Part shown: piece after piece, positions 10,120 to 64,000 of the stretch
Layout of the letters: each line of letters starts with the position of its first letter
How positions within the stretch are numbered: position 1 is the first letter of the stretch
NCBI RefSeq assembly: GCF_044704955.1
Contig: NC_092007.1
Coordinates: 10,292,001-10,356,000, forward strand
DNA from: Pristiophorus japonicus
Taxonomy: Eukaryota
DNA length: 64,000 nt
Reading direction: 5' to 3'
Position numbers and translations under genes: made by a program
The notes under the pieces: generated by a model
What the model was told of the DNA's origin: nothing
Databases searched by the model: none
Seen by the model: the letters and a program-made list of their open reading frames with translations, nothing else

Positions 10120-10915
10120 AACAGTGTCTCCTGATTCACTCTATCAAAAACCCCTCGTGATTCTGAACACCTCGATTAAATCTCCCCTTAACCTTCTCTG
10201 CTCGAAGGAGAACAGCCCCAGCTTCTCCTCCAAACCCTCTGCGCGGCCTTGACATTTGCCTAACATGCGGCGCCCAGAATTGGACACAATACTCCAGTTG
10301 AGGCCTCACCAGTGATTTATAAAGGTCCCAGGAGGAATTTAAGAACCTAAGAAATAGGAGCAGGAGTCGGCCATATGGCCCTTCGAGCCTGCTCCGCCAT
10401 TCAACACGATCATGGCTGATAATCGACCTCAAGTCCAATTTCCTGCCCGATCTCCATATCCCTTGATTCCTCTGGACCCCAAAAATCTCTCGATCTCAGC
10501 CCTGAATACATTCAGAGACTCAGCATCTACAGTCTTCGGGAGCAGAGAATTCCAAAGATTTACAACCCTCTGAGTCAAGAAATTCCTCCTCATCTCAGTC
10601 CTAAATGGCCGACCCCTTATCCTGAGTCTGTGACCCCTGGTTCTAGACTCCCCAGCCCGGGGGGCAACATCCTCTCAGCATCTACCCTGTCAATCCCTCT
10701 CAGAATCTTGCACGATTCAATGAGATCAGCTCTCATTCTTCTCAACTCCAGAGAGTATAGGCCCGTTCTACACAATCCCTCATCGTAAGACAGCCCTCTC
10801 ATCCCGCAACCAATCCAGTGAACCTCCGTTGAACCGCCTCCATGGCAGATGTGTCCTTCCTTAGATAAGGAGACCAAGACTGTGCACAGTACTCCGCAGT
10901 GCTCCCGATACTGAT
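10120..10915 (-). mobile_element. Two nested CR1 3' fragments
   Basis: LVRPQLEYCVQFWAP and GLYSLELRRMRADLIE on the minus strand; (TTCTTAGG)-like tail near 10335-10352. Confidence 0.85.
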
Positions 10916-11429
10916 CTGAATTTCGGGACAAATCACACTGTTAGCAGAATCCCAGCTGCCCCCATCCTCCCCCTTCCCTGGGGGTGATGGGGTATCACAT
11001 GGACACACAGGCACACAGTTCCCATTATTTACCGAACCTTCACTTTGACAATATGTCACGTCGAACTTAAATTAAAATCTGCAACACCAACAACTTGCAT
11101 TTGAAGGAAGTGACAGGATGAACTTGGAGCCTGTTTTTTAGGCCGAAAACCAAATTCTTCGACCCTAAACCTTCTCGTCTCTTCTCTCTTTAGGATTAAG
11201 AGCTGGTTAGTCGGACTGCAGGTTATAGTGAGGTGCGTGGAAGCAGGTGAGAGTACAGAGCGCGCTGCTTTGTTGTGGGTCTTTTTATTGGGAGGCCCTT
11301 GACTAGGCCTCAGGCCTGTAGTTCAGGGCTGCACCAGGGGCGTAACCGAGACAACCAGGAGTTAGTGGCTGGAGCAGCACGAAGTTGGGAATGTACCCGA
11401 CTGTCACTGTGATCTCCGGGAGGTCAATC

Positions 11430-11690
11430 GCAGCAACATCTTGCATTTATATAGCACCTATTAGGGCCCAAGGCCCTTCACAGGAGCAGTTAACCAGACT
11501 AAATTTGACACCGAGCCACGTAAGGGGATATTGGGATAGGTGACCTAAAGCTTGGTCAAAGAGGTGGGTTTTAAGGAGCATCTTAAACGTGGGGAGCGAG
11601 GGAGGTGGAGAGGTTTAGGGAGGGAATTCCAGAGCTTAGGGCCCAGGCAGCTGAAGGCACAGCTGCCAATGGAGGAAGAGAGCAGGAGAG
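11430..11690 (-). mobile_element. L2-type LINE 3' end fragment
   Basis: AFSCLGPKLWNSLP...LKP motif on minus strand; 3' end GCTATATAAATGCAAG. Confidence 0.7.
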
Positions 11691-11894
11691 ACGAGAGAGA
11701 GGAGGGGGGAATTTGGGGGGAGAGAGAGATGGGGAGGGGGAGGATTATAACGGGGCCCTCCCTCACTGCGATCGAGTTCACAATTATTTCAGCAAAATAA
11801 CAGTCGAGCTAAGAGAGAGTTTCCCACAATTATTGTCCTTAAACCTTCCGTACATTCAGACTGGTTCTTCACACCCCAGGTTCATCCCTGAAAA

Positions 11895-12194
11895 GACAGA
11901 CTTGCATTTCTACTGCAACTTTCTCCTCCTCGGCATCGCAAAGCACTTCACCGCCAGTGAAGGACTTTTGAAGTGTGGTCACGATTGCAATGTGTGAAGC
12001 ACGGCAGCCAATTTGCACACAGCAAGCTCTCACAAACAGCAATGTGATAACGACCGGATAATCTGTATTAGTGATGTTGGTTGAAGAACAAATACTTCCG
12101 AGGACACCGGGGATTACTTTCCCCTGCTCTTCTTCGAAATATTGGCTGTGGGATCTTTGATGTCCACCTTCGAGAGCAGACGTCGGTTTAACAT
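11895..12194 (-). mobile_element. Deu-domain SINE (SacSINE1/AmnSINE1-like), split by CR1; head continues at 15605-15665
   Basis: Reverse complement of the uninterrupted copy at about 39870-40225; family assignment from recalled consensus. Confidence 0.7.
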
Positions 12195-30780: not shown

Positions 30781-31327
30781 ACTGATCATGCTAAATAGAC
30801 GGGGAGTAACGCTGGAAGGTTTGAAAAGCTGTTTGATATTGTGCCAAAGACCGATTCTGTGAGTGAGTGGTGTGGATCACCGTTACCTGGAACCGTTCCT
30901 TAAACTACCTGCAACTGTTATTTCTGCTTCTGAGCCTCCCCTTCCTGTCCCTCAGTTACTGAACACTGAGGATTCCCGCTTCCCACCAGCATTAGTGTTT
31001 CTGGAAGTCTGTGGGGAAGTCCGAACCATCCTGTCGGGAATCTGACGGGATTGGGAGCAACGCTGGCTGACATCACCGGAGAGTAATATTGTCCCGGGTG
31101 TGAAACCAGCGTTCCACCCGATCCCGAGCAAAGAGTGACAGAAGAATGATGCTGCCTTACACGGGACTTGTCATTATAAATAGTACAGGCCTGAGCTTCA
31201 GTCTTCCCACAGAGATGGTCAGAGCTACTCGTAAATTGAGTATCGCAGTGTAACTGTGTGAAGCTTGAAATGTACTGTACCCGCAGGGAGGTTCTATCTG
31301 TGGATAAATACTTTGAATCTTTTCCAG

Positions 31328-31672
31328 GTTCTTCACCTGTCACAGTTTCTGGGTCCGTTGGGGGGCAGGTTGTGCTGCCCTGTACCTACAAAGGGAACGT
31401 CCCAGTCCCAGATTTACAAGTACTCTGGCAAATACCCGGGCGTGAAGTTGTCCACAGGTTTGTCGGTGGGAGCGATGATTTGACAGAGCAAGACCCGCAG
31501 TTCAGAGAGAGAACCAACCTCTTCAAAGACCAACTGGAACACGGTAACTGGTCAGTTATGCTCTCTGACCTCAGGGAGTCCGACCAGAACACGTTTGAGT
31601 GTCACATGCTCAGGTTGATGCGTACGCGCTTTTGTTGGGAGCAAGGTGTCTCAGTCCGTCTCTCTGTCACAG
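31328..31672 (+). CDS. Ig V-set exon 2, duplicate of exon 1
   Basis: Same splice sites and 345-nt length; VVLPCTYKG...QDPQFRERTNLFKDQLEHGNWSVMLSDLR...FEC. Confidence 0.93.
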
Positions 31673-32731
31673 GTGAGAGATTTCTGTTTCAGGGTTTCTG
31701 CATTGATCAGGAGTCTATCACCAATGTTATGGGTACGGTAATGCAGGGGTTATGTTACTGGACAAGTAATCCAGAGGTCTGGACTCACAATCCAGAGAAG
31801 GCGAGTTCAAATCCCACCACGCCACTTCGAGAACGTGAGAATAAATCTGGAAATACAAAATTGGTTCCAATAAAAGTGACCTTGAAGCTGTTGGATTGGC
31901 TTAAAACCCAACGGGTTCACTAATGTCCTTCAGGGAAGGAAACCTGCCGTCTTTACCCGGTCTGGTCTACATGTGACTCCAGTCCCACACCAATGTGGTT
32001 GGACCTTTCACGGCCCCCTGATGTAGCCCAGCAAGCCAATCCGTTGCATCAAACCACTAGAAAGAAGCCACATTTTACTGAACAACCCAGACATCGAACC
32101 AGGACACAGCAAAGGCAAACCCAGCCCAGTCGACACTGCAAAGTCCTCCTCATGAACATCTGGGGACTTGCGCCCAAGTTGGGAGAGCTGTGTGACATAG
32201 TCATACTCCCAGAATCAACCCTACATCCCAGCCTGCTCCATCACCATCCCTGTCCCACCGACAGGACAGACCCAAGGGTGGGGACACAGTGGTATACAGT
32301 CGGGTGGGAGTGGCCCCGGGAGTCCTCAACATTGAAGACAATGGAGAGTAGAATTGTCCCGGGTGTGAACCCGGCGTTCCACCTGATCGCGTGACTTTCC
32401 CGACCCGCAAATGAGTTTAAAATTCCCCCCTATTCCAGCGGGCTGTTGGGTTAAATTGTAGGGAGGCTGCTCATGGTCAGTGTTCAGATATCTCTATCGG
32501 AAAGCCTGTATCGATCACATTGTGGGGCAGTGTGTGTGTGTGTGCAAGGAGCTGTGGGATGGCCTGGTGTGTGAGATTATTGGAATCTAACCTCTCACAT
32601 CCCTCCCGGGCTAGAATTGACCAGGGATCTATTTGTGCTGGGGATGGTTCTGAAGCACTCGGTGCTGAAGGTCTCCGCTGTTAGCTTTGTGAGTGTGTTC
32701 CAATCTGTTAACGGCTTCATTCTGTCTCTAG

Positions 32732-39900: not shown

Positions 39901-40225
39901 GGTGCCATCTTTTGCCATGAGATGTTAAACCGACGTCTGCTCTCTTAAGGTGGACGTCAAAGATCCCACAGCCAATATTTCGAAGAAGAGCAGGGGCGAG
40001 TAATCCCCGGTGTCGTCGGAAATATTTGTTCCTCAACCAACATCACTAATACAGATTGTCCGGTCATTATCACATTGCTGTTTGTGAGAGCTTGCTGTGT
40101 GCAAATTGGCTGCCGTGCTTCACACATTGCAATCGTGACCACACTTCAAAAGTCCTTCACTGGCGGTGAAGTGCTTTGCGATGCCGAGGAGGAGAAAGGT
40201 GCTGTAGAAATGCAAGTCTGTCTTT
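39870..40225 (+). mobile_element. Deu-domain SINE (SacSINE1/AmnSINE1-like)
   Basis: GATGTTAAACCG...AAAGATCCCA...GAAGAAGAGCAGGGG...AAATTGGCTGCC...AAATGCAAGTC resembles the recalled consensus. Confidence 0.7.
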
Positions 40226-42079
40226 TCAGGGATGAGACCTGGGGTGTGAAGAACCAGTCTGAATGTACGGAAGGTTTAAGGACAATAATTGTGGGAAACT
40301 CTCTCTTAGCTCGACTGTTATTTTGCTGAAATAATTGTGAACTCGATCGCAGTGAGGGAGGGCCCCGTTATAATCCTCCCCCTTCCCATCTCTCTCTCCC
40401 CCCAAATTCCCCCCTCCTCTCTCTCATCTCTCCTGCTCTCTTCCTCCATTGGCAGCTGTGCCTTCAGCTGCCTGGGCCCTAAGCTCTGGAATTCCCTCCC
40501 TAAACCTCTCCACCTCCCTCGCTCCCCACCTTTAAGATGCTCCTTAAAACCCGCCTCTTTGACCAAGCTTTAGGTCACCTATCCCAATATCCCCTTACGT
40601 GGCTCGGTGTCAAATTTAGTCTGGTTAACTGCTCCTGTGAAGGGCCTTGGGCCCTAATAGGTGCTATATAAATGCAAGATGTTGCTGCGATTGACCTCCC
40701 GGAGATCACAGTGACAGTTGGGTACATTCCCAACTTCGTGCTGCTCCAGCCACTAACTCCTGGTTGTCTCGGTTACGCCCCTGGTGCAGCCCTGAACTAC
40801 AGGCCTGAGGCCTAGTCAAAGGCCTCCCAATAAAAAGACCCACAACAAAGCAGCACGCTTGGTACTCTCACCTGCTTCCACGCACCTCACTATAACCTGC
40901 AGTCCGACTAACCAGCTCTTCATCCTAAAGAGAGAAGAGACGAGAAGGTTTAGGGTCGAAGAATTTGGCTTTCGGCCTAAAAAACAGGCTCCAAGTTCAT
41001 CCTGTCACTTCCTTCAAATGCAAGTTGTTGGTGTTGCAGATTTTAATTTAAGTTCGGCGTGACATATTGTCAAAGTGAAGGTTCGGTAAATAATGGGAAC
41101 TGTGTGCCTGTGTGTCCATGTGATACCCCATCACCCCCAGGGAAGGGGGAGGATGGGGGCAGCTGGGATTCTACGCCCCCCCTCTCCCCTCAACAGTGTG
41201 ATTTGTCCCGAAATTCAGATCAGCATCGGGAGCACTGCGGAGTACTGTGCACAGTCTTGGTCGCCTTATCTAAGGAAGGACACATCTGCCATGGAGGCGG
41301 TTCAACGGAGGTTCACTGGATTGATTGCGGGATGAGAGGGCTGTCTTACGATGAGGGATTGTGTAGAACGGGCCTATACTCTCTGGAGTTGAGAAGAATG
41401 AGAGCTGATCTCATTGAATCGTGCAAGATTCTGAGAGGGATTGACAGGGTAGATGCTGAGAGGATGTTGCCCCCGGGCTGGGGACTCTAGAACCAGGGGT
41501 CACAGACTCAGGATAAGGGGTCGGCCATTTAGGACTGAGATGAGGAGGAATTTCTTGACTCAGAGGGTTGTAACTCTTTGGAATTCTCTGCTCCCGAGGG
41601 CTGTGGATGCTGAGTCTCTGAATATATTCAGGGCTGAGATCGAGAGATTTTTGGGGTCCAGAGTAATCAAGGGATATGGAGATCGGGCAGGAAATTGGAC
41701 TTGAGGTCGATTATCAGCCCTGATCGTGTTGAATGGCGGAGCAGGCTCGAAGGGCCATATGGTCAACTCCTGCTCCTGTTTCTTGGGTTCTTAAATTCCT
41801 CCTGGGACCCACTGGTGAGGCCTCAGCTGGAGTATTGTGTCCAATTCTGGGCGCCGCATGTTAGGAAAATGTCAAGGCCTTGCAGAGGGTGTGGAGGAGA
41901 AGCTGGGGCTGTTCTCCTTCGAACAGAGAAGGTTAAGAGGAGATTTGATTGAGGTGTTCAAAACCATGAGGGGTTTTGACAGAGTGAATCAGGAGACACT
42001 GTTTCCACAGGTCAGAGCCCCATAATCCAGGCTGACAATTCCAGATACATTACTCAGAGCGCTATACTGTCGGAGGGGC

Positions 42080-46422: not shown

Positions 46423-48955
46423 TCCCGGCACAGTACACTCCGCACTGGCTCACTCCCCCACAGTACACATCGCACCGGCTCACTCCCCCAAAGTACACTC
46501 CGCACTGGTTCACTCCGCCACAGTACACTCTGCACTGGTTCACTCCCCCACAGCACACTCTGCACTGGCTCACTCCCCCACAGCACACTCTGCACTGGTT
46601 CACTCCCCCACAGCACACTCCGCACTGGCTCACTCCCGGCACAGCACACTCCGCACTGGCTCACTCCCCCACAGTACACTCCGCACTGGCTCACTCCGCC
46701 ACAGTACACTCTGCACTGGTTCACTCCCCCACAGCACACTCCGCACTGGCTCACTCCGCCACAGCACACTCCGCACTGGTTCACTCCCCCACAGCACACT
46801 CCGCACTGGCTCACTCCGCCACAGCACACTCCGCACTGGTTCACTCCCCCACAGCACACTCCGCACTGGCTCACTCCCGGCACAGCACACTCCGCACTGG
46901 CTCACTCCCCCACAGTACACATCGCACCGGCTCACTCCCCCACAGTACACTCTGCACTGGTTCACTCCCCCACAGTACACTCCGCACTGGTTCACTCCGC
47001 CACAGTACACTCTGCACTGGCTCACTCCGCCACAGCACACTCTGCACTGGTTCACTCCCCCACAGCACACTCCGCACTGGCTCACTCCCGGCACAGCACA
47101 CTCCGCACTGGCTCACTCCCCCACAGTACACATCGCACCGGCTCACTCCCCCACAGTACACTCCGCACTGGCTCACTCCGCCACAGTACACTCCGCACTG
47201 GCTCACTCCGCCACAGTACACTCTGCACTGGTTCACTCCCCCACAGCACACTCCGCACTGGCTCACTCCCGGCACAGCACACTCCGCACTGGCTCACTTC
47301 CCCACAGTACACACCGCACTGGCTCACTCCGCCACAGTACACTCCGCACTGGTTCACTCCCCCACAGCACACTCCGCACTGGCTCACTCCCCCACAGCAC
47401 ACTCCGTACTGGCTCACTCCCCCACAGTACACTCTGCACTGGTTCACTCCCCCACAGTACACTCCGCACTGGTTCACTCCGCCACAGTACACTCTGCACT
47501 GGCTCACTCCGCCACAGCACACTCCGCACTGGTTCACTCCCCCACAGCACACTCCGCACTGGTTCACTCCCCCACAGCACACTCCGCACTGGCTCACTCC
47601 CCCACAGCACACTCCGCACTGGCTCACTCCGCCACAGCACACTCCGCACTGGCTCACTCCCCCACAGTACACTCCGCACTGGCTCACTCCGCCACAGTAC
47701 ACTCTGCACTGGTTCACTCCCCCACAGCACACTCCGCACTGGTTCACTCCGCCACAGCACACTCCGCACTGGCTCACTCCCCCACAGTACACTCCGCACT
47801 GGCTCACTCCCCCACAGCACACTCCGCACTGGCTCACTCCCCCACAGCACACTCCGCACTGGTTCACTCCCCCACAGCACACTCCGCACTGGCTCACTCC
47901 GCCACAGCACACTCCGCACTGGCTCACTCCCCCACAGTACACTCCGCACTGGCTCACTCCCCCACAGTACACACCGCACCGGCTCACTCCCCCACAGTAC
48001 ACTCCGCACTGGCTCACTCCCCCACAGTACACACCGCACTGGCTCACTCCGCTACAGTACACTCCACACTGGCTCACTCCCGGCACAGCACACACCGCAC
48101 TGGCTCACTCCCGGCACAGTACACTCCGCACTGGCTCACTCCCCCACAGCACACTCTGCACTGGCTCACTCGCGGCACAGCACACTCCGCACTGGCTCAC
48201 TACCCTACAGTACACTCCGCACTGGCTCACTCCCCCACAGTACACTCCGCACCGGGTCACTACCCCACAGTACACTCCGCACTGGCTCACTACCCCACAG
48301 TACACTCCGCACTGGCTCACTCCCCCACAGTACACTCCGCACCGGCTCACTCCCCCACAGTACACTCCGCACTGGCTCACTCCACCACAGTACACTCCGC
48401 ACTGGCTCACTCCCCCACAGCACACTCCGCACTGGCTCACTCCCCCACAGTACACTCCACACTGGCTCACTCCCGGCACAGTACACTCCGTACTGGCTCA
48501 CTCCACCACAGTACACTCCGCACTGGCTCACTCCCGGCACAGCACACTCCGCACTGGCTCACTCCCCCACAGTACACACCGCACTGGCTCACTCCCGGCA
48601 CAGTACACTCCGCACTGGCTCACTCCCGGCACAGCACACTCCGCACTGGCTCACTCCCCCACAGTACACTCCATACTGGCTCACTCCCCCACAGTACACT
48701 CCACACTGGCTCACTCCACCACAGTACACTCCGCACTGGCTCACTCCCGGCACAGTACACTCCGCACTGGCTCACTCCCCCACAGTACACACCGCACTGG
48801 CTCACTCCCGGCACAGTACACTCCGCACTGGCTCTCTACCCCACAGTACACTCCGTACTGGCTCACTACCCCACAGTACACTCCGCACTGGCTCACTCCC
48901 CCACAGTACACTCCGCACTGGCTCACTCCCCGCACAGCACACTCCGCACTGGTTC
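46423..48955. repeat. 30-bp satellite with occasional 31-bp units
   Basis: Unit CACAGYACACTCCGCACTGGYTCACTCCSC. Confidence 0.97.
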
Positions 48956-51661
48956 AAAAGGAAGTGTGGTAGTGTTGCAAGTTTAAGAGGAAATTAACGT
49001 AATAGTAAGGAAGGACATTAGCTTGGATGAGTGGGAATCGTTATGGGTGGAGCTGCAGAATACCAAAGGGCAGAAAACGCTAGTTAGAGTTGTGTACAGA
49101 CCACCAAACAGTAGTAGTGAGGTTGGGGACAGCATCAAACAAGAAATTAGGGATGTGTGCAATAAAGGTACAGCAGTTATCATGGGCGACTTTAATCTAC
49201 ATTTCGATTGGGCTGATCAAACTGGCAGCAATGCGGTAGAGGAGGATTTCCTGGAGTGTATTAGGGATGGTTTTCTAGACCAATATGTCGAGGAACCAAC
49301 TAGAGAGCTGGCCATTCTAGACTGGGTGATGTATAATGAGAAAGGACTAATTAGCAATCTGGTTGTGCGAGGCCCCTTGGGGAAGAGTGACCATAATATG
49401 GTAGAATTCTTTATTAAGATAGAGAGTGACACAGTTAATTCAGAGACTAGGGTCCTGAACTTAAGGAAAGGTAACTTCGATATATGAGATGTGAAGTGGC
49501 TAGAATACACTGGCGAATGATACATTAAAAGGTTGACGGTGGATAGGCAATGGCAAACATTTAAAGATCACATGGATGAACTTCAGCAATTGTACATCCC
49601 TGTCTGGAGTAAAAATAAAATGGGGAAGGTGGCTCAACCGTGGCGAACAAGGGAAATTAAGGATAGTGTTAAATCCAAGGAAGAGGCATATAAATTGGCC
49701 AGAAAAGAGAAGCAAACCTGAGGACTGGGAGAAATTTAGAATTCAGCAGAGGAGGACAAAGGGTTTAATTAGGAGGGAGAAAATAGAGTACGAGAGGAAA
49801 CTTGCTGGGAACATAAAAACTGTCTGCATAAGCTTCTATAGATATGTGAAGAGAAAAAGATTAGTGAAGACAAACGTAGGTCCCTTGCAGTTAGAATCAG
49901 GTGAATTTATAATGGGGAACAAAGAAATGGCAGACCAATTGAACAAATACTTTGGTTCTGTCTTCACGAAGGAAGACACAAATAACCTTCCGAAAATACT
50001 GGGGGACCGAGGGACTAGTGAGAAGTAGGAACTAAAGGAATTCCTTATTCGTCGGGAAATTGTGTTAGGAAAATTGATGGGATTGAAGGCCGATAAATCC
50101 CGAGGGTCTGATAGTCTGCATCCCAGAATACTTAAGGAAGTGGCTCTAGAAATAGTGGATGCATTGGTGATCATTTTCCAACAGTCTATCGACTCTGGAT
50201 CAGTTCCTATGGACTGGAGGGTAGCTAATGTAACACCACTTTCTAAAAAAGGAGGGAGAGAGAAAACAGGTAATTATAGACCGGTTAGCCTAACATCAGT
50301 AGTGGGGAAAATGTTGGAATCAATTATTCAAGATGAAATAACAGCACATTTGGAAAGCAGTGATAGGATCGGTCCAAGTCAGCATGGATATATGAAAGAG
50401 AAATCATGCTTGACAAATCTTCTGGAATTTTTTGAGGATGTAACTAGTAGAGTGGACAAGGGAGAACCAGTAGATGTGGAGTATTTGGACCTTCAAAAGG
50501 CTTTTGACAAGTCCCAGACAACAGATTAGCAAAATTAAAGCGCATGGTATTGGGGGTAATGTACTGACATGGATAGAGAACTGGTTGGCAGACAGGAAGC
50601 AGAGAGTCAGGATTAACGGCTCCTTTTCAAAATGGCAGGCAATGACTAGTGGAATGCCGCAGGGCTCAGTGCTGGGACTCCAACTATTTACAATATACAT
50701 CAATGATTTAGATATTAAGTGTAATATCCCCAAGTTTGCAGATGACACTAAGCTGGGTGGCAGTGTGAGCTGTGAAGGGGATGCTAAGAGGCTGCAGGGT
50801 GACTTGGGCAGGTTAGGTGAGTGGGGCAAATGCATGGCAGATGCAGTATAATGTGGATAAAGGTGAGGTTATCCACTTTGGTGGCAAAAACACGAAGGCA
50901 GAATATTATCTGAATGGCGGCAGATTAGGAAAAGGCGAGGTGCAACGAGACCTGGGTGTCATGGTACATCAGTCATTGAAAGTTGGCATGCAGGTACAGC
51001 AGGCGGTGAAGAAGGCAAATGGCATGTTGGCCTTCATAGCTAGGGGATTTGAGTATAGAAGCAGGGAGGTCTTGCTGCAGTTGTACAGGGCCTTGGTGAG
51101 GCCTCACCTAGAATATTGTGTTCCGTTTTGGTCTCCTAATCTGCGGAAGGACGTTTTTGCTATTCAGGGAGTGCAACGAAGGTTCATCAGACTGATTCCC
51201 GGGATAGCAGGACTGACATATGAGGAGAGACTGGATCGACTGGGCCTGTATTCACTCGAGTTTAGAAGGATGAGAGAGGATCTCACAGAAACATATAAAA
51301 TTCTGACGGGACTGGACAGGTTAGATGTAGGAAGAATGTTCCCGATGTTGGGGAAGTCCAGAACCAGGGGTCACAGTCTAAGGATAAGGGGTAAGCCATT
51401 TAGGACCGAGATGAGGAGAAACTTCTTCACTCAGAGAGTTGTTAACCTGTGGAATTCTCTACCGCAGAGAGTTGTTGATGCCAATTCATTGGATATATTC
51501 AAGAGGCAGTTAGATATGGCCCTTACGGCTAAAGGGATCAAGGGGTATGGAGAGAAAGCAGGAATGGGGTACTATGGGAATGATCAGCAATGATCTTATT
51601 GAATGGTGGTGCAGGCTCGAAGGGCTGAATGGTCTACTCCTGCACCTATTTTCTATGTTTC
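48956..51661 (+). mobile_element. CR1 ORF2, 5'-truncated, inside the satellite
   Basis: VVYRPP, GDFN, SDH, PQGSVLG, FADD, TTTCTATGTTTC tail. Confidence 0.95.
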
Positions 51662-53397
51662 TCTCCCGGCCCAATACACTCTGCACTGGCTCACTCCCGG
51701 CCCAATACACTCTGCATTGGCTCACTCCCGGCCCAATACACTCTGCACTGGCTCATTCCCGGCCCAATACACTCTGCACTGGCTCACTCCCGGCCCAATA
51801 CACTCTGCACTGGCTCACTCCCGGCCCAATACACTCTGCACTGGCTCACTCCCGGCCCAATACACTCTGCACTGGCTCACTCCCGGCACAATACACTCTG
51901 CACTGGCTCACTCCCGGCCCAATACACTCTGCACTGGCTCACTCCCGGCCCAATACACTCTGCACTGGCTCACTCCCGGCCCAATACACTCTGCACTGGC
52001 TCACTCCCGGCCCAATACACTCTGCACTGGCTCACTCCCGGCCCAATACACTCTGCACTGGCTCACTCCCGGCCCAATACACTATGCACTGGCTCACTCC
52101 CAGCACAATACACTCTGCACTGGCTCACTCCCGGCCCAATACACTCTGCACTGGCTCACTCGCAGGCCAATACACTCTGCACTGGCTCACTCCCGGCCCA
52201 ATACACTCTGCACTAGCTCACTCCCGGCCCAATACACTCTGCACTGGCTCACTCCCGGCCCAATATACTCTGCACTGGCTCACTCCCGGCACAATACACT
52301 CTGCACTGGCTCACTCCCGGCACAATACACTCTGCACTGGCTCACTCCCGGCTCAATACATTCTGCACTGGCTCACTCCCGGCACAATACACTCTACACT
52401 GGCTCACTCCCAGCGTAATACACTCTGCACTGGCTCACTCCCGGCCCAATACACTCTGCACTGGCTCACTCCCAGTGTAATGCACTCTGCACTGGCTCAC
52501 TCCCGGCACAACACACTCTGCACTGGCTCACTCCCGGCCCAATACACTCTGCACTGGCTCACTCCCAGTGTAATACACTCTGCACTGGCTCACTCCCGGC
52601 ACAACACACTCTGCACTGGCTCACTCCCGGCCCAATACACTCTGCACTGGCTCACTCCCAGTGTAATACACTCTGCACTGGCTCACTCCCGGCACAACAC
52701 ACTCTGCACTGGCTCACTCCCGGCCCAATACACTCTGCACTGGCTCACTCCCGGCCCAATACACTCTGCACTCACGGCGTAATACACTCTGCACTGGCTC
52801 ACTCCCGGCCCAATACACTCTGCACTGGCTCACTCCCAGCGTAATACACTCTGCACTGGCTCACTCCCGGCCCAATACACTCTGCACTGGCTCACTCCCG
52901 GCCCAACACACTCTGCACTGGCTCACTCCCGGCATAATACACTCTGCAGTGGCTCACTCCCAGCGTAATACACTCTGCACTGGCTCACCCCCGGCCCAAC
53001 ACACTCTGCACTGGTTCACTCCCGGCCCAATGCACTCTGCACTGGCTCACTCCCGGGCCAAGACACTCTGCACTGGCTCACTCCCGGCCCAATACACTCT
53101 GCACTGGCTCACTCCCGGCCCAATACACTCTGCACTGGCTCACTCCCGGCCCAATACACTCTGCACTGGCTCACTCCCGGCATAATACACTCTGCACTGG
53201 CTCACTCCCAGCCCAATACACTCTGCACTGGCTCACTCCCAGCGTAATACACTCTGCACTGGCTCACTCCCGGCCCAATACACTCTGCACTGGCTCACTC
53301 CCGGCCCAATACACTCTGCACTGGCTCACTCCCGGCCCAATACACTCTGCACTGGCTCACTCCCGGCCCAATACACTCTGCACTGGCTCACTCCTGG
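51662..53397. repeat. 31-bp satellite
   Basis: Unit CCCAATACACTCTGCACTGGCTCACTCCCGG. Confidence 0.97.
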
Positions 53398-53947
53398 TGT
53401 GGATATCTGAACGGAATATATGGAATTAAGGACAGTAAAGTAAACGGGATATATGAAAATGTATAAGCCATGGAAGAATAGCTGGGAGAATGTCAGATTG
53501 CAAAAAGTGCAACATCAGCTTAGCTAACAGTCTGTCTCAAGGTTTCAAGTCACTAATCCTGCCAATAATATATAATTGTAACATGAAATACATCTGCAGA
53601 ATTGCAAGGTCTCAGTAAATAGTCACACCATTAGATTGAAACATTTGGAGGCAATACTTGAGCTTTCAAGAAGAACATCTCATATAGATTGACTAATGAG
53701 TGGCTGAGTTAGACTGTCAATCCATTTGTATTTTGTTATCTGATTTCAAAACTGTATAACTGTTAACGCTTTACGATGTAACTTCACCTATCCGTAGGGA
53801 GTGTGTACGCTCTATCCAGAGAGTATATCTTCTGTCTGATAGGTCTTACTGGCCGGTAATAAAGACTGCTTTGTTCAAAGCACAAGAGGTATTCGACTCA
53901 GTAATTTTACTGAACCAGATTGAGGTAAAAGAATCCAGGAATTAACA
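53398..53947 (+). repeat. ERV 5' LTR
   Basis: TGTGGATATC...GAATTAACA; AATAAA at 53858; no difference from the 3' LTR found by eye. Confidence 0.97.
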
Positions 53948-53949
53948 TT

Positions 53950-53967
53950 TGGTGTCAGAAGTGGGAT
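53950..53967 (+). promoter_or_regulatory. Primer-binding site, tRNA-Leu
   Basis: TGGTGTCAGAAGTGGGAT, complementary to the 3' 18 nt of vertebrate tRNA-Leu(CAA/CAG). Confidence 0.88.
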
Positions 53968-55752
53968 CTCAACGGACGACTGCCGAAAACTTGCGAATTA
54001 AGAGCCAGACTAGCCTTGGACGAGACGAGGGGAAAATGGCCACTGGAGTGAGTATGATTTCAATACTGCTCCAGTTTCCCCCGGTTTCAAAAATCTGAGG
54101 AAAGTTTAGCCACTCGCTGGTTCTCAGGTAGTGTCTGAACGAGATCCAGGACAATCTGGTGAATACCTTTCAAACTTAGAATAGGGATAGAGATAGGGAA
54201 ATTGTGCGATGACGCAAACCAAGCGGCGACTTGGAAAGGGAAAGATAGTTAGAGCTAGATAGGGATAGATGATCAATCATGGATCCAAAAAAAATTTAAT
54301 AGGAAAGAAAAGAGACTCTTGTGAATGTCTGTTTAAATGAGAAATGCTTCTGTGACTTTTACTGTAAAAAAAAAGCCGGGGAGTTGTGGTTTGTTTTATC
54401 TCAAACAGAATGAAAGTTTGTTTTAACCCTTCGTAGTGTTGTCCTGTATGTGGGAAGTTTAAGAGTGTGAACCTTATTGAATTACGTATATTCGGATGAT
54501 AAGTTGCGGAGCCAGGAAATGCCCAAAGGATAGATTTGTTAAAAAAAGAAAAAATTACATGGTCCCGGTGGTTAAAAAAAAAGAAAAACTTGTTGAAAGA
54601 AAACATTCAGAGAAGGCACAGCAAAACAACTGAGATGGATTTAAAAGGATTTAAAAAAAAATTATATTAAATAACACGACCTTGAGGCTGGAACAATTGA
54701 GATAACGAAAAGCAGTCCACAGCCTACGTGCCAGACTTCTCTCTAGTTATAAAAAAAAGTAACGTACTAAATAGGTGCCGAAAGAAAAAAAAAAAAATGT
54801 TCTGAGATTTTAAATTATGAAAAATATAAAATCACTCCTGTCCAGTTGGCAGAAAAACTCCATTAAATTAGGGCTTTCATTGACTGATTGAATTTAAACT
54901 GCGCAGTAACGTCAAAGGATAGGGAAATTTGGAGACTAAAATAAATTAATTGAGGCTCATAAGAAATCAAAATTAGAAAATTAGGCTCACAGGGAATAAA
55001 ATGGGGATTTAAATAGAGGATAGGTGTTCAACTCAGGTACGACGTCGACCTTGTATATCACTTGGCCCGTCTAGGCTCTGATTGAATTTAAAAAAAAACC
55101 CCGCAGCAACTCGGAAGGTAGGGCCGACGCGAACGCGCGGCCGAGAGAAGGGCCGAAGCGAACGCGCAGCGACGTAAACGCGCAGTGACGCCGACGCGTA
55201 GTGACGCAGAGGCGCAGCAACGCGAATCGCGAAAGTCAGTGCTAATGGCAGTAAGTCTGTAAGTCTTAAGGTGTTTAGAGTTTTAAGTTTAGTATTAAGA
55301 TCGCACGGCTATGCGGACCGTGCGGTGATGCGGGTAATTTTGTAGATCGTGCGGCTATGCGGACCGTGCGGTGATGCGGGTACGTGTTAGAAGTCTTTGT
55401 CTATTTTGTAGATCGCGCGGCTATGCGGACCGTGCGGCGATGCGGGTAAAGTAAAGTTAAAGTATCTTAACTCGCGCGGCGACGCGAGCCACGGGTCGAC
55501 GCGGATTGCGCGGCGGCGTGAGCTGCGGGGCAACGCGGATTGCAAGGCGACGTGAACTGCGAGGCGACGTGGTAGTTTAGTATTAAGATCGTGCGGCGAC
55601 GCGGACCGTGCGGTGATGCGGGTAAGTGTTAGATTTGGAGTTAGTTAAAGTCCGTGTTAGTTCTGTAAAGTCTGTGTCTATTTGTAAGTTTGTTTAAATT
55701 GCACGACGACACGAACGCGTAGCGACACAGTAATACGAGGGGCAGTGTGAAA

Positions 55753-57192
55753 ATGGGAAATCAGTTAGATAAAACCACGGATGCGGATAGTCCGCTACAA
55801 AAGTTATGTGAGGAATTCCCTGAAAGAGCTGAAGACTTTAGAAAATTATCAGGAGCCCTGAACAAATTATTAGGGGATGACCAGTGGCCTCTAAGTGACA
55901 CTAGAAGCGTAGAGGTAAAAAAAAAAGCACAGGGATTAATTTGGAGAAGGGGACGAGGAAAAGGGGATAAAAAAATTTAATTGCAACCTGGCGACATTAT
56001 TGTCAGAAATTAAAAGATGCATCACTTCTATCGAGTTGGCAAACAATGCTATTAAATTAGGACTTGCATTGACAGAGGGAACACATGTTAAAACTGTAGA
56101 CGTCTTTAAAAAAAAAGAATGAATGTGCGCACGAGAAACTTGCTAAGAGATCCTCTGGGACCTCTGAGAAAGGTATTGATCAACTACAAGTTAAAATGGC
56201 TGGCTTTGTGTTAACCGAGGCTGATGATGAAATTGATGAGTGGCCACTGACTCAGCGCCCAACGGCGCCTCCCGCACCCCCTGGCCTCTTGCTCCAGTCC
56301 TCTTCCCAACACCCTCCACCTAACACTCCAGTAAAAAAGAGTTAGGAACAACCACATATCACCAAAGCAACAAACCCAAACTGACTCCTCATCCTCTGAT
56401 AGCGATTCGGATCCCCAGTTTACAAGCAATACAGCCGAAAGGACCAGATCTCACACTCGAAAGGGCAGAACTATATCTCAACATCACAAACAGTCCCGTA
56501 AATCTTCTAGTCAACCTACCAGTCCAAGTTGTGAAAGACATAGCAAACACCCCCGCCGATCGAGACACAGAACTGTCAAGCAGTCAGACAGCTCTGAAAC
56601 ATCCTCCGGCCTAGAAATGATTTCCAAGATCCCAAAGTCCCGACACCAATTCCCTGTCAGACCAATGCCAAACTCTGATGCACAACAAGCTGCAGACCAC
56701 CTCTCTATAGATGTCTGTGATCTTCAAACAACTATTTGATTGCTCACGCTATCCGGACAGATGGAAAGGGCAGTTAGATATTATTGGCAGAAAAAGAAAG
56801 GGGAGGGGGGAGGTGCGCCCCCAACCCGGGTCAAGACTGAATACGTGACTAGAAAGGAAGAGCCATCTCGGGAGGAAGGATCAATAGAACCGCAGTGTTG
56901 CATACAGGATTGGATGGATAAGCAAGGATACGGTTATACTAAACAACCAAACGGCCCGAGCCCTGCTAATAAACCTCCCTATTGTCCCCGGCATGGTATG
57001 GGAAGAGGCCGGGACTGGGTAAGAGGAATTGACTGTTTTAATTGTGGGCAGGAAGGACATTGGAATAAAAATTGCCCCTACCGTCAGCATGGAAAAGGAA
57101 GAGGAGGAAGAGGAGGGGGGCAAGGGGGGAGAGGAAGATCTTTCACTAACTTCTCCCAGAACAACCCCTTTGGTCAATTGTCCCCCGATTGA
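55753..57192 (+). pseudogene. gag: ERV gag, frameshifted, capsid largely deleted
   Basis: MGNQLDKT myristoylation-type start, PTAPP late motif near 56260, QFPVRP capsid start near 56647 followed shortly by NC with CFNCGQEGHWNKNC (57034-57075). Confidence 0.88.
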
Positions 57193-58041
57193 CTACGCAG
57201 CTTGATTGTGCAGGGATCCTCCCCGGACGACGAACCCATTCTGAATGAGTGGCAACCCTTTTTGATAGATACGGGAGCCTTCATGTCTTCTGTACAATCA
57301 AAGCTTAAACTCCCTGCTTCTACTGAAACACAGGAACTTTCAGGATTCCTGGGACAAATCTCGACATTCCCAGTGTCAGAACCGGTTAAAATGGGTTACC
57401 AGGAAGAATCGGTGGAACATCGAGTTGTTATCACAACCAATCTGGACTGTAACTTGATGGCTAGAGACCTCCTTTGCAAATTCCAGTTGCATTTGGAGTG
57501 TGGAGATAATGGGATTATTGTAAAACAGGAAACCCTTAAGCGGCAGTATTATACCACTAGAACCCCTCAGTGGTGGTCTCTGGACCTGCCGCAGGCACCC
57601 TATCACGTGACCCTAGCATACGATCCCAGTGGAAAGAATCAGGTCCTGCAGAACTTTTATCAGGATCACGAAGGGGAAGTGAAGGGAATTCTATTTAGGG
57701 CTAGAGTGACTGGACTGGAAAGAGAGGCAGATTTTGTGGAAGTGGATAAGAATCTGTGGAAACAGCCCCTAACAATGGCACCGCATATTGCTCGTGAAGT
57801 ATTAGCCCCTCACCATGCTAAAGATTTGGGAGTTATGGTACACAAGGCCATAGATGAGGCTGACCCTACCAGCCGGGATGTGCAAATCGTAAAACATGGC
57901 CGAACAGTCCAATTTAATGGGGACCCCGAGAAAGTATTAACAACTCTATGGCATCATACTGGCTCGGACATACCTGACTATGTGGATCCTCATGTGTGGG
58001 CAGAGGACCCCTCCCAAGTGGGTTATACTCCCATTAATTGA
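57193..58041 (+). CDS. pro: ERV protease plus 2H-phosphoesterase-like domain plus RT N-terminus (open frame)
   Basis: FLIDTGAFMS, NLMARDLL, then YHVTLAY and PHIA...HHAKDLGVMV, then VWAEDPSQVG; in frame with gag across TGA-CTA. Confidence 0.85.
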   Translation, partial: LRSLIVQGSSPDDEPILNEWQPFLIDTGAFMSSVQSKLKLPASTETQELSGFLGQISTFPVSEPVKMGYQEESVEHRVVITTNLDCNLMARDLLCKFQLHLECGDNGIIVKQETLKRQYYTTRTPQWWSLDLPQAPYHVTLAYDPSGKNQVLQNFYQDHEGEVKGILFRARVTGLEREADFVEVDKNLWKQPLTMAPHIAREVLAPHHAKDLGVMVHKAIDEADPTSRDVQIVKHGRTVQFNGDPEKVLTTLWHHTGSDIPDYVDPHVWAEDPSQVGYTPIN

Positions 58042-59418
58042 GATCCCAGTGCAGGGCAATGTGGACTGGCCCTCTATCCGACAGAACCCACTGAAATCAC
58101 AGGCAATCCTAAACTGACTTTTCGGCACTGTACTGCAATTAATCCGGCCTGTTTTCTTACTGAGCCACCCCAAGATGAGGAAGAACCCAGTCATGATTGT
58201 TTATGTTTGTTGACGGAAGTACTTCTATTAATCCAGAAGATACACGAATCTCAGGATACGCCATAGTAAACCAGGAGAATCAGGTCTTGGAATCTGCTGC
58301 TTTGAAACCGCCTATTCTGCTCAACAAGCTGAACTATTCGCCCTCACCCAAGCCTGCATCTTGGCCAAAGATCTCAAAGTCAATATCTATACCGACTCTA
58401 GGTATGCCTTTGGGGTGGCGCATGATTTCGGACAATTATGGAAAAATAGGGGATTCCTAACCTCACAGGGGAATGAGATATCTCATAAACAGTTAGTATC
58501 TGATTTGTTGCAAGCCCTCATGTTCCCCAAACGCATTGCCATTGTACCAAGAGGCCAAACAGGCCTCTCGTGACCAACAGATGGTAGTGCCCAAAATTAT
58601 GAGTCAGATTAAAAATCCTGCAAAGGATAAGTTAGCCTCGGAAAAACCAATGCCAACCATCCAAGATGTTATAAAAGCACAGGGGGACGCTCCTGAAAAA
58701 GATAAACTGTTGTGGAAATATTATGCATGTACTTATGACAATGTTTCTAAACTCTGGACCACTCCCGCGGAACAGACTTGCATGTCTGACGAGTTGGCCT
58801 CATGGGTTATAGAATGTCTGCATTTTGCTACTCATTGTGGAGCAAGGGCAACAAGTGATACACTTTTGGCTACTTGGTGGCACCCTAAACTCCAGGCGCT
58901 CACCCAGAACATCAGTAGTCGTTGCCTGGTTGGCCAGCAACATAATCCAGGGAAGGGAGTCCCCTGTGATTGGGGTAAAACGCCCCTACCCGAAGGTCCC
59001 TTTGAGACATTTCAGTTGAACTACATTGAGTTGCAAAAAGTTCAGTGTTACAGATATGTGTTAGTAATAGTAGATGTGTTTAGCAGATGGATTGAAGCCT
59101 ACCCTAACCTGGACAATAAGACTCAGACTGTTGTTAAGGTGTTAATGAGGGAAATTGTTCCTAGATATGAGATCTCAGCTAGACTGATGACCACCTATGT
59201 TCTTTCTCTGACTCAGGCTCTGCGACTAGTTCACAACCAGGTTCAAGATGCTTACCCGAATAGTCCCTCGTGGCACCAGGGAAGTATGGATTCGGAAGGG
59301 ATTAGAGCCACAATAGGAGGGGCCTTTTTAGGTGTCACTCACTACCCCCACTGCAGCCAAGGTTGAGGGGAAAAGTGTCTGGGTTCACCTGCACCACTGC
59401 AAGCTCATCACCATTTAA
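58042..59418 (+). pseudogene. pol: ERV pol remnant: RT core deleted, RNase H and integrase partial
   Basis: IRQNPLKSQA joined near 58105 to INPACFL...HDC; FVDGS, SAQQAEL, YTDSRYAFG; HFATHCG, VDVFSRWIEAYP; no YxDD and no integrase SDNG/E segment. Confidence 0.9.
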
Positions 59419-59591
59419 ACAAATTTTGCTGGTTAGTCTAATTCCTGTTTCTGTTCCAGATCTCCTCCTCCCTATAGCTGAACAAGGCAGTTGAAGGAGG
59501 ATCAGTTTGACCAAATACACTGACGGAGACCTGAAGGGAAACGTGAAAACAGAACTCTTTTTATCAGCTAAATAATTGGACTATTTATAAG

Positions 59592-60315
59592 ATGAGATTG
59601 TGTCTGTATGCTACTGTCTGCATAATAGTGTTGATATATGACAGTTTTGGTGCACGGGAAGGAAGACAAAGGCGAGAGCTCCATGTAAACACCTTTTTGT
59701 ATATGTCTTACGTTTATGCGGAAAAAGGGCACTTCACTAGATGCTGGGTGTGTTCACATATCCCTATACATTCCAAAGGGGGAATTCCTTTGCGCACCGT
59801 TCCCCTGACCCTAACTGAGACTGTTAGATGGATTCAAAGAAACGATATTGGAACAGGTAGCTCACCGCACTGCTGAGGCTCTGGAGGGCATCACAGCTGA
59901 AATGGTAGCGATAAGGACCGTAGCATTACAAAACCGAATGGCCCTCGATTACCTGTTAGCTGAGAAAGGGGGAACGTGTGCCCTGATAGGATCTGAATGT
60001 TGCACTTACATTCCTGATAGTTCAGAAAACATAACCCACCTTGCCGATCACATAAGGAGGGAGGTGAAAAAGTTATCCACACCAGCAAAAGAACTTAGCA
60101 GGTTTGATTGGTTTCTGGGTGGATCTTGGAGATCCTATCTAATACATGGGGCAATTGTTCTCATCATAATAATTACCTGCTGTTTGATTGTTGGTTGCCT
60201 TAACCTCTGCTGTAAAGCAATGACAAGGTTAGCAGACCCTCTTGTGGTCAAGGGTTCCCGGGTTATGATCCAACAAACTAGAGAACTACTCAACAATGCA
60301 ATACTCATAGAATGA
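59592..60315 (+). pseudogene. env: ERV env with most of SU deleted
   Basis: Signal peptide and CWVC joined out of frame near 59847 to TM with LQNRMALDYLLAEKGG, CALIGSECC (CX6CC) and membrane anchor; splice acceptor at 59438-59459. Confidence 0.92.
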
Positions 60316-60339
60316 TCCTAAATGTTATCATTGAATGAT

Positions 60340-60350
60340 AAAAGGGGGGA
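60340..60350 (+). promoter_or_regulatory. ERV polypurine tract
   Basis: AAAAGGGGGGA immediately before the 3' LTR. Confidence 0.9.
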
Positions 60351-60900
60351 TGTGGATATCTGAACGGAATATATGGAATTAAGGACAGTAAAGTAAACGG
60401 GATATATGAAAATGTATAAGCCATGGAAGAATAGCTGGGAGAATGTCAGATTGCAAAAAGTGCAACATCAGCTTAGCTAACAGTCTGTCTCAAGGTTTCA
60501 AGTCACTAATCCTGCCAATAATATATAATTGTAACATGAAATACATCTGCAGAATTGCAAGGTCTCAGTAAATAGTCACACCATTAGATTGAAACATTTG
60601 GAGGCAATACTTGAGCTTTCAAGAAGAACATCTCATATAGATTGACTAATGAGTGGCTGAGTTAGACTGTCAATCCATTTGTATTTTGTTATCTGATTTC
60701 AAAACTGTATAACTGTTAACGCTTTACGATGTAACTTCACCTATCCGTAGGGAGTGTGTACGCTCTATCCAGAGAGTATATCTTCTGTCTGATAGGTCTT
60801 ACTGGCCGGTAATAAAGACTGCTTTGTTCAAAGCACAAGAGGTATTCGACTCAGTAATTTTACTGAACCAGATTGAGGTAAAAGAATCCAGGAATTAACA
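60351..60900 (+). repeat. ERV 3' LTR
   Basis: 550-bp copy of 53398-53947. Confidence 0.97.
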
Positions 60901-63900
60901 CTGGCTCACTCCCGGCCCAATACACTCTGCACTAGCTCACTCCTGGCTCACTCCCGGCCCAATACACTCTGCACTAGCTCACTCCCGGCCCAATACACTC
61001 TGCACTGGCTCATTCCCGGCCCAATACACTCTGCACTGGCTCACTCCCGGCCCAATACACTCTGCAGTGGCTCATTCCCGGCCCAATACACTCTGCACTG
61101 GCTCACTCCCGGCCCAATACACTCTGCACTGGCTCACTCCCGGCCCAATACACTCTGCACTGGCTCACTCCCGGCCCAATACACTCTGCACTGGCTCACT
61201 CCCGGCCCAATACACTCTGCACTGGCTCACTCCCGGCCCAATACACTCTGCACTGGCTCACTCCCGGCCCAATACACTCTGCACTGGCTCACTCCCAGCC
61301 CAATACACTCTGCACTGGCTCACTCCCGGCCCAATACACTCTGCACTAGCTCACTCCCGGCCAAATACACTCTGCACTGGCTCACTCCCGGCACAACACA
61401 CTCTGCACTGGCTCACTCCCGGCACAATACACTCTGCACTGGCTCACTCCCGGCCCAATACACTCTGCACTGGCTCACTCCCGGCCCAATACACTCTGCA
61501 CTGGCTCACTCCCGGCACAATACACTCTGCACTGGCTCACTCCCGGCGTAATACACTCTGCACTAGCTCACTCCCGGCCCAATACACTCTGCACTGGCTC
61601 ACTCCCGGCCCAATACACTCTGCACTAGCTCACTCCCGGCCCAATACACTCTGCACTGGCTCACTCCCGGCCCAATACACTCTGCACTGGCTCACTCCCG
61701 GGCCAATACACTCTGCACTGGCTCACTCCCGGCCCAATACACTCTGCACTGGCTCACTCCCGGCCCAATACACTCTGCACTAGCTCACTCCCGGCACAAT
61801 ACACTCTGCACTGGCACACTCCCGGCCCAATACACTCTGCACTAGCTCACTCCCGGGCCAATACACTCTGCACTGGCTCACTCCCGGCACAATACACTCT
61901 GCACTAGCTCACTCCCGGCCCAATACACTCTGCACTGGCTCACTCCCGGCCCAATACACTCTGCACTGGCTCACTCCCGGCCCAATACACTCTGCACTGG
62001 CTCACTCCCGGCCCAATACACTCTGCACTGGCTCACTCCCGGCACAATACACTCTGCACTAGCTCACTCCCGGCCCAATACACTCTGCACTGGCTCACTC
62101 CCGGCCCAACACACTCTGCACTGGCTCACTCCCGGCATAATACACTCTGCACTGGCTCACTCCCAGCCCAATACACTCTGCACTGGCTCACTCCCAGCGT
62201 AATACACTCTGCACTGGCTCACTCCCAGCGTAATACACTTTGCAGTGGCTCACTCCCGGCCCAATACACTCTGCACTGGCTCACTCCCGGCCCAATACAC
62301 TCTGCACTGGCTCACTCCCGGCACAATACACTCTGCACTGGCTCACTCCCAGCGTAATACACTCTGCACTGGCTCACTCCCGGCCCAATACACTCTGCAC
62401 TGGCTCACTCCCGGCCCAATACACTCTGCACTGGCTCACTCCCGGCCCAATACACTCTGCACTGGCTCACTCCTGGCTCACTCCCGGCCCAATACACTCT
62501 GCACTAGCTCACTCCTGGCTCACTCCCGGCCCAATACACTCTGCACTAGCTCACTCCCGGCCCAATACACTCTGCACTGGCTCATTCCCGGCCCAATACA
62601 CTCTGCACTGGCTCACTCCCGGCCCAATACACTCTGCAGTGGCTCATTCCCGGCCCAATACACTCTGCACTGGCTCACTCCCGGCCCAATACACTCTGCA
62701 CTGGCTCACTCCCGGCCCAATACACTCTGCACTGGCTCACTCCCGGCCCAATACACTCTGCACTGGCTCACTCCCGGCCCAATACACTCTGCACTGGCTC
62801 ACTCCCGGCCCAATGCACTCTGCACTGGCTCACTCCCGGCCCAATACACTCTGCACTGGCTCACTCCCAGCCCAATACACTCTGCACTGGCTCACTCCCG
62901 GCCCAATACACTCTGCACTAGCTCACTCCCGGCCAAATACACTCTGCACTGGCTCACTCCCGGCACAACACACTCTGCACTGGCTCACTCCCGGCACAAT
63001 ACACTCTGCACTGGCTCACTCCCGGCCCAATACACTCTGCACTGGCTCACTCCCGGCCCAATACACTCTGCACTGGCTCACTCCCGGCACAATACACTCT
63101 GCACTGGCTCACTCCCGGCGTAATACACTCTGCACTAGCTCACTCCCGGCCCAATACACTCTGCACTGGCTCACTCCCGGCCCAATACACTCTGCACTAG
63201 CTCACTCCCGGCCCAATACACTCTGCACTGGCTCACTCCCGGCCCAATACACTCTGCACTGGCTCACTCCCGGGCCAATACACTCTGCACTGGCTCACTC
63301 CCGGCCCAATACACTCTGCACTGGCTCACTCCCGGCCCAATACACTCTGCACTAGCTCACTCCCGGCACAATACACTCTGCACTGGCACACTCCCGGCCC
63401 AATACACTCTGCACTAGCTCACTCCCGGGCCAATACACTCTGCACTGGCTCACTCCCGGCACAATACACTCTGCACTAGCTCACTCCCGGCCCAATACAC
63501 TCTGCACTGGCTCACTCCCGGCCCAATACACTCTGCACTGGCTCACTCCCGGCCCAATACACTCTGCACTGGCTCACTCCCGGCCCAATACACTCTGCAC
63601 TGGCTCACTCCCGGCACAATACACTCTGCACTAGCTCACTCCCGGCCCAATACACTCTGCACTGGCTCACTCCCGGCCCAACACACTCTGCACTGGCTCA
63701 CTCCCGGCATAATACACTCTGCACTGGCTCACTCCCAGCCCAATACACTCTGCACTGGCTCACTCCCAGCGTAATACACTCTGCACTGGCTCACTCCCAG
63801 CGTAATACACTTTGCAGTGGCTCACTCCCGGCCCAATACACTCTGCACTGGCTCACTCCCGGCCCAATACACTCTGCACTGGCTCACTCCCGGCACAATA

Positions 63901-64000
63901 CACTCTGCACTGGCTCACTCCCAGCGTAATACACTCTGCACTGGCTCACTCCCGGCCCAATACATTCTGCACTGGCTCACTCCCGGCCCAATACACTCTG
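60901..64000. repeat. 31-bp satellite with a 1572-bp higher-order repeat
   Basis: Order of variant units from 60901 recurs from 62473; ORF ends 61783 and 63355 differ by 1572. Confidence 0.93.

Follow-up and report, generated by a model that had tools for sequence, protein, structure and literature searches.

In mouse ETn/MusD, IAP I-delta-1 and koala recKoRV, a defective partner with intact cis signals is moved by an autonomous partner. Here we describe a 7,503 bp class I endogenous retrovirus (ERV) with identical long terminal repeats (LTRs) and a heavily damaged interior, located on the + strand at positions 53398-60900 of a 64,000-nucleotide stretch of elasmobranch DNA (the window; Pristiophorus japonicus, assembly GCF_044704955.1, contig NC_092007.1, positions 10,292,001 to 10,356,000 of the forward strand), which very probably represents a non-autonomous deletion lineage that was reverse-transcribed and integrated in trans. 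Central to this reading is that the lesions are older than the insertion, a conclusion supported by an integrase deletion junction shared with other gene models, by clock tests comparing the interior with the LTRs and by an empty copy of the target site. The mechanism is already known from ETn/MusD, bovine D-type ERVK and canid ERV-Fc, and the shark host is the added value.

Published systems are compared here as far as the accessible parts of the sources describe them. ETn/MusD, I-delta-1 and recKoRV, which differ from the sawshark element in being mammalian and in having a known partner, are named as comparable systems in the report on bovine ERVK[2-1-LTR], whose D-type measures ~6.8 kb against a 10-kb competent form (PMC10924933). 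Like the bovine D-type, the sawshark element is non-autonomous, has no functional gene and appears to have been mobilised in trans, at 7.5 kb against an inferred parent of ~10 kb. The bovine element differs in being class II and mammalian, in carrying one swapped central segment, and in having a known helper and observed de novo insertions, whilst the sawshark element has several separate deletions and is known without a helper or ongoing activity. Canid CfERV-Fc1(a) is likewise class I and defective, its proviruses sharing deletions and stops across loci, including a large env deletion, and these shared defects were read as spread by trans complementation (PMC6407205). In contrast to our material, which consists of one locus and two gene models, the canid lineage is gammaretroviral and its polymorphism was followed across hundreds of genomes.

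Closer in host are elephant shark CmiERV lineages II and III, which like our element are chondrichthyan, env-bearing and near epsilonretroviruses (PMC4422223). The two complete elephant shark ERVs are dated at 54-75 Myr, with an LTR divergence of 2.4-3.3% against 0 of 550 positions here, a comparison made by description only (PMC4422223). Identical LTRs are common in some fish, being found in 248 of 890 zebrafish elements (PMC8672886). The definition of an invading ERV (ERVi, Wang and Han 2023) includes identical LTRs, intact genes and insertional polymorphism; the sawshark element was considered as an ERVi and set aside, having identical LTRs and no intact genes; as to polymorphism, an almost identical paralogue of the empty site is no more than suggestive. 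A screen of 2,004 genomes, 13 of them from cartilaginous fishes, reported invading ERVs in 37 host orders, with shark and ray orders absent from those 37 in the main text, whilst the supplementary tables may list cartilaginous-fish elements with identical LTRs that were filtered out (PMC10435555). As our element lacks reverse transcriptase (RT), it would escape any search for young ERVs that relies on this enzyme. A literature search, with subscription-only papers outside its reach, found no description of this family or of a young non-autonomous shark ERV.

Structure of the element and its integration site

The original prediction, made by eye, had described two mismatch-free LTRs of 550 bp with an intact target site duplication (TSD), primer binding site (PBS) and polypurine tract (PPT). 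Alignment of the LTRs (53398-53947 and 60351-60900), which both have TG...CA ends and a poly(A) signal, gave 550 matches in 550 bases, a full identity that no other of the window's 74 dispersed repeat pairs (120 nt or longer) reaches (runner-up 96.6%), and the three other signals were all located. The integration site and its 4-bp TSD are real because an uninterrupted site with a single CTGG exists at 62473. With two complete TG...CA-bounded LTRs, PBS, PPT and a short TSD relative to this empty site, the element is a provirus, and its parts and surroundings are as follows.

51663..53394, no strand: host 31-bp minisatellite, left arm
53394..53397, no strand: left TSD, 4 bp, CTGG (same site single-copy at 62473)
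53398..53947, + strand: 5' LTR, 550 bp, TG...CA, poly(A) signal at 53858
53950..53967, + strand: PBS, 18 nt, starting 2 nt past the 5' LTR
53968..55752, + strand: leader, 1.8 kb, 5' half rich in A-runs, 3' half CpG-rich and internally repeated
55753..57192, + strand: gag remnant, frame fragmented, zinc knuckle kept, capsid probably largely missing, terminal stop in frame with pol
57193..57519, + strand: protease, open frame (Pfam RVP, E 2e-4)
57520..57972, + strand: candidate 2H-phosphoesterase-like domain between protease and RT, second His motif altered
57973..58200, + strand: RT remnant, first and last few dozen codons, ~385-390 codons gone near 58100, small deletion near 58200
58200..58550, + strand: RNase H remnant, frameshift near 58300, C-terminal end deleted near 58550
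58551..59418, + strand: linker and integrase remnant, with zinc-binding domain, core deleted near 59180, C-terminal domain frameshifted and with stops
59592..60315, + strand: env remnant, signal peptide and start of the surface subunit (SU), large deletion near 59845, transmembrane subunit (TM) open
60340..60350, + strand: PPT
60351..60900, + strand: 3' LTR, identical to 5' LTR
60901..60904, no strand: right TSD, CTGG
60901..62355, no strand: host minisatellite, right arm; this arm and ~120 bp on the left side of the element make up copy A of a 1,572-bp higher-order duplication
62356..64000, no strand: copy B of the host duplication, with the uninterrupted target site at 62473-62476

The PBS is presumably that of tRNA-Leu; ARAGORN found no tRNA gene for comparison with it. 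The window holds no further copy of the LTR or interior, and Rfam returned nothing in 53300-61000. We also considered a processed pseudogene made by a long interspersed nuclear element (LINE), as in HERV-W. Such copies have truncated LTRs (no 5' U3, no 3' U5), a poly(A) tail and a long TSD, and this origin is excluded by the full-length identical LTRs, the lack of a tail and the 4-bp TSD.

The leader is presumed to hold the packaging signal. Its segment 55130-55640 is CpG-rich (observed/expected 1.6-1.7) and internally repeated, with an excess of GACG words and no detected structure; over the whole leader 16 GACG words were counted against 8.4 expected, a number reached in 0 of 200 shuffles. 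Across 54287-56338, covering leader and the 5' part of gag, there are 13 sense-strand runs of at least six A (shuffle mean 2, maximum 7 in 500), 10 of them preceded by T. T-runs are absent from the same interval, and the other 4 kb of the interior has no such A-runs. The A-runs could stem from slippage by RT, from local editing or from errors in homopolymers.

Lesions of the interior

Mapping of database relatives onto the window located nine insertion or deletion (indel) events in ~2,950 bp of pol and env. In addition to the large RT deletion, pol has lost ~108 codons of the integrase core near 59180, carries small deletions near 58200, 58550 (the RNase H end, ~19 codons) and 59250 and frameshifts near 58040, 58300 and 59300, and has two stops in the integrase C-terminal domain. 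The env deletion near 59845 removes ~160-235 codons of SU, cleavage site and fusion peptide; 11 of 26 env relatives align on both sides of this gap, ten of them skipping ~160-235 residues and the eleventh giving an over-extended alignment. These results bear out the deletions in RT core, RNase H end, integrase core and SU, and the frameshifts, that had been proposed from inspection, and add those near 58200 and 59250, which were absent from the earlier list. The proposed capsid deletion stands in part. Gag start and zinc knuckle lie ~427 codons apart here against 623 in one distant relative, P0069, a spacing from which the capsid is probably deleted; the missing Pfam Gag_p30 match was dropped as proof of capsid loss, P0069 also having none. 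Local alignment with P0069 Gag matched only the zinc-knuckle region.

Pfam matches remain for the zinc knuckle, protease, RNase H, a partial integrase core, the integrase zinc domain, an MLV-type (murine leukaemia virus) integrase C-terminus and a gamma-type Env TM. No RT catalytic motif is left in pol, the motif being present in all four RT-bearing relatives (YVDD), and the element, to judge by its coding content, is unable to reverse-transcribe or integrate itself. The absence of functional RT and integrase, together with the retained cis signals, makes it non-autonomous.

Some frames have stayed open. The protease and 2H-like frame runs across 282 codons, and Env TM (59838-60315) is open with its conserved motifs kept despite the SU deletion. 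At the gag-pol stop (57190-57195) TGA is followed by CTA, which we take to be a context favouring read-through, MLV presumably using TAG as a rule.

Relatives and the shared integrase junction

The closest sequences are Pristiophorus japonicus gene models, with 86-92% identity in the RNase H-integrase region. All named matches in both integrase-region searches are from sharks or skates, as are most of those for env, and the family comprises gene models P0117-P0119 and P0005-P0007 from P. japonicus and P0001-P0004 and P0120 from Scyliorhinus, Leucoraja, Heptranchias and Heterodontus. The order protease, 2H-like domain, RT is also found in P0002 and P0004. A tree of 15 rows places the window in a group with P0117-P0119 (86/99), paired with P0119 (91/87).

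The window, P0117 and P0118 have an integrase junction in common, at which the flanking motifs stand 7 residues apart, compared with 115 in P0002 and P0121, and across it 21 of 24 residues in P0117 and 22 of 24 in P0118 are identical to the window. Of the nine near-length relatives two share the junction and two retain an intact core; one (P0119) stops at the junction and says nothing about it, and the alignments of the other four fall short of it. Over 195 columns the window differs by 13.8% from P0117 and by 10.3% from P0118, so that neither model represents this locus. P0117 keeps stretches that are lost here near 58200, 58550 and 59250, is in frame near 58300 and reaches beyond the RT breakpoint, and the four sawshark env models displayed keep SU sequence that the element lacks. 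Relatives retain RT, SU or the RNase H end in varied combinations, none having the full deletion set of the element. Compared in this way, the sequences suggest that integrase was lost first and that the other losses came later. Splicing of viral RNA was considered as a source of the junction, and would likewise place the loss before insertion.

A further Pristiophorus model, P0125 (‘guanylate-binding protein 4-like’), starts with 76 residues of this family's RNase H-integrase linker at 76% identity. It is probably a chimeric prediction, and its start is possibly an ERV-derived exon.

Interior and LTR clocks

Comparison of the window with its three close relatives gave 12 private substitutions in 195 columns, corresponding, if neutral, to 2.6-2.9% per lineage. 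Had these arisen after insertion, 29-32 differences would be expected between the LTRs, where 0 were observed (conditional P 2-3e-7). Using a substitution-to-indel ratio of 9.5:1 obtained from 15 repeat pairs of the window, the nine indels imply 2.9%, and the probability of identical LTRs is then 6e-7, or 3.5e-4 counting only five of the indels. Both tests assume LTRs that were neither converted nor collapsed. Given this mismatch between LTRs and interior, damage after insertion is rejected.

The private changes comprise 4 G>A, 3 A>G, 1 C>T, 1 T>C and 3 transversions, and only 1 of the 12 is of CpG type, which together with the CpG-rich leader points weakly to RT cycles as their source, whilst the host-like indel ratio leans away from such cycles. 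G-to-A hypermutation was examined and is unsupported, the private changes being mixed and G before A not being depleted in the A-run region.

The latter two observations also speak against a functional virus having been wrecked in its single inserting round, through template-switch deletions and deaminase hypermutation, or very soon afterwards. Deletions between short repeats are typical RT errors; the stretch lost near 58200 is, by eye, bounded by a repeated dipeptide in P0117, and leader and gag have more A-runs than expected on one strand, which could be read in the same sense. Nine indels in one cycle, however, far exceed known RT error rates, and the integrase junction is common to copies that differ by 10-14% in protein, so that we consider wreckage in one step highly improbable.

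The empty site and the age of the insertion

The element interrupts a 31-bp minisatellite. When the element and one TSD are removed, 1,645 bases of its flanks align to a block 1,572 bp downstream with 2 mismatches, only one of which falls within the first 1,572 bases of copies A and B, against an in-phase array background of 3.7%. Copy B has a single CTGG at 62473 together with the variant base found left of the element, and the left boundary of the duplication lies 3-4 units upstream of the element. The empty site in copy B thus proves the TSD and supplies a clock that LTR conversion cannot reset. Copy B may be a pre-insertion duplication, the outcome of a crossover with an empty allele or a misplaced other haplotype; whichever of these holds, the insertion is no older than the near-zero divergence of A and B. 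The arrangement provides an unusually clean dating check that is independent of the LTRs, useful given the very low mutation rates of sharks.

The 31-bp array (51663-64000) also contains 42-bp variant units, and is related through a shared core to a 30-bp minisatellite at 46429-48956, with a LINE fragment between the two.

Gene conversion between LTRs is an established phenomenon, and an old provirus could have decayed in place and had its LTRs equalised later by conversion or unequal exchange in a recombination-prone satellite; the element does lie inside a tandem array with evident turnover, and the lack of a helper would be no surprise under such a history. Conversion would have to span all 550 bp including both ends, however, and would leave untouched the clock given by the empty site of copy B, which includes the left-flank variant and differs by 1 mismatch in 1,572 bp. 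The units adjoining the element are not degraded, and decay in place leaves the shared integrase junction unexplained. We regard such a history as quite unlikely.

An assembly artefact, in which polishing collapsed diverged LTRs, or the other haplotype was set in tandem as copy B, or both, is very unlikely in our judgement. The region is repetitive, the window contains six N gaps, and homopolymer errors could account for the 13 long A-runs of leader and gag. Single-base variants have nevertheless been kept among the 31-bp units (23 variant types on the left, 20 on the right), as has a 1-base difference between the 1.57-kb copies, both harder cases than the LTRs, and 73 of the 74 dispersed repeat pairs, all those other than the LTRs, are uncollapsed. 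Polishing can make neither large deletions nor a shared junction, and if copy B were the other haplotype the insertion would be heterozygous, favouring youth.

The combined 95% bound on the age of the insertion is 0.0011 per site, ~23x below the decay of the interior. The rate in the epaulette shark is 7e-10 per site per generation (PMC10587355), and work on the elephant shark assumed 2.2e-10 per year (PMC4422223). At these rates LTR identity alone allows up to 3.9 million generations or ~12 Myr, and LTRs and host duplication together give an upper bound of ~1.6 million generations or 5 Myr. The insertion is accordingly ‘recent’ in a relative sense, being young compared with the damage of the element. 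The claim of a recently active family holds in that sense and does not extend to present-day activity, the LTRs allowing ~12 Myr; the claim that the damage predates the insertion is upheld by the shared integrase junction, the interior-versus-LTR clock and the empty-site paralogue. The interior is far more diverged than either the LTRs or the host duplication, and an insertion more than 20x younger than the decay of the interior implies working retroviral RT, integrase and particles relatively late in the shark lineage.

Probable mobilisation in trans

LTRs, TSD, PBS and PPT are marks of retroviral RT and integrase, which the element cannot encode, and mobilisation in trans is the most likely explanation. 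In the sequence of events that we propose, a class I, probably epsilon-like, shark ERV lineage would have lost its integrase core early and subsequently RT, the RNase H end, SU and probably capsid, leaving a defective donor still equipped with its cis signals (LTR promoter, poly(A) site, PBS, PPT, integrase ends and presumably a packaging signal). This donor would have been transcribed, and another virus or complementing copies would have supplied the Gag-Pol that packaged, reverse-transcribed and integrated its RNA, the final round making the LTRs identical and leaving the 4-bp TSD in the host minisatellite. The order in which parts were lost, the donor's transcription and packaging, and a helper's existence and identity are inferences.

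Several observations weigh against this scheme. No intact helper was found in three protein searches and a search of a representative library, and of the proposal that a helper packaged and integrated the RNA in trans it is the older lesions that give support. The three closest relatives (86-92%) have a broken integrase or stop at the junction; relatives whose integrase core is intact come from other genera, at 53-78% identity. The junctions had been expected at other copies; that of integrase recurs in P0117 and P0118, that of SU is shared by 0 of 26 env relatives and no second copy of the RT junction was seen. P0117 and P0118 are moreover predicted gene models in which the junction could be a modelled splice instead of a genomic deletion, and their grouping with the window and P0119 (86/99) falls below the strict threshold. 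No packaging-signal structure was detected in the leader, where GACG-loop hairpins are absent and the best 150-nt window has a z no better than -1.1. A separate homogenisation of the satellite would weaken the argument from the empty site. Finally, at 2.2e-10 per year a decay of 2.6% needs >100 Myr in the donor, so that either the rate was higher or RT cycles added changes.

Beyond mobilisation in trans as such, the element may be a segregating insertion of a serially passaged parasite-of-parasite that discarded integrase, RT, SU and capsid in successive steps, and whose helper is an intact, possibly still infectious epsilon-like shark retrovirus with a 2H-phosphodiesterase and present or very recent activity in the germ line, a scenario that we put forward tentatively and consider doubtful. 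The LTR and the junctions offer a direct probe for the retroviral components that carried out the insertion.

Class membership and the 2H-like domain

A single frame for gag and pro-pol interrupted by one stop is a feature of class I ERVs. The element has this arrangement, gag and pro-pol sharing one frame with a single stop between them, together with a gamma-type Env TM (TLV_coat, E 1e-9) and an MLV-type integrase C-terminal domain (MLVIN_C, E 2e-10). Its assignment to class I is supported by four features in all. The YVDD motif is that of the four RT-bearing relatives, the RT core of the window itself being deleted. An epsilon-like placement is likely, drawn from host-range statements in the accessible text of PMC4977317 and PMC6001957 rather than from an RT tree.

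Between protease and RT, 57520-57972 gave feature matches of 0.79-0.81 in the Atlas, at the level of a lead, to the LigT/2'-5' ligase/Acb1 families, and the 2H-like domain of five relatives has paired His motifs, with a spacing of 60 residues in four relatives and of 82 in the fifth. The domain has no Pfam match and no convincing match in the PDB; the single PDB sequence match of the protease/2H-like open reading frame, at E 0.66, is not meaningful and was discarded. We treat 57520-57972 as a lead towards a 2H-phosphoesterase-like domain. Phosphodiesterase/2H domains are reported in some fish epsilon-like ERVs and are not obligatory there.

Other features of the window

The open frame at 31240-31923, ~21 kb upstream of the ERV and on its strand, has an immunoglobulin V-set domain (E 5e-10) and probably represents a host exon. 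At 356-4781 a decayed Gypsy-like pol (RT, RNase H, integrase), for which no LTR pair was detected, stands beside a DDE_Tnp_4 (Harbinger-type) transposase fragment on the minus strand. The segments 10116-12194 and 39922-42007 form a 2.1-kb inverted repeat pair with 96% identity, 28 kb apart.

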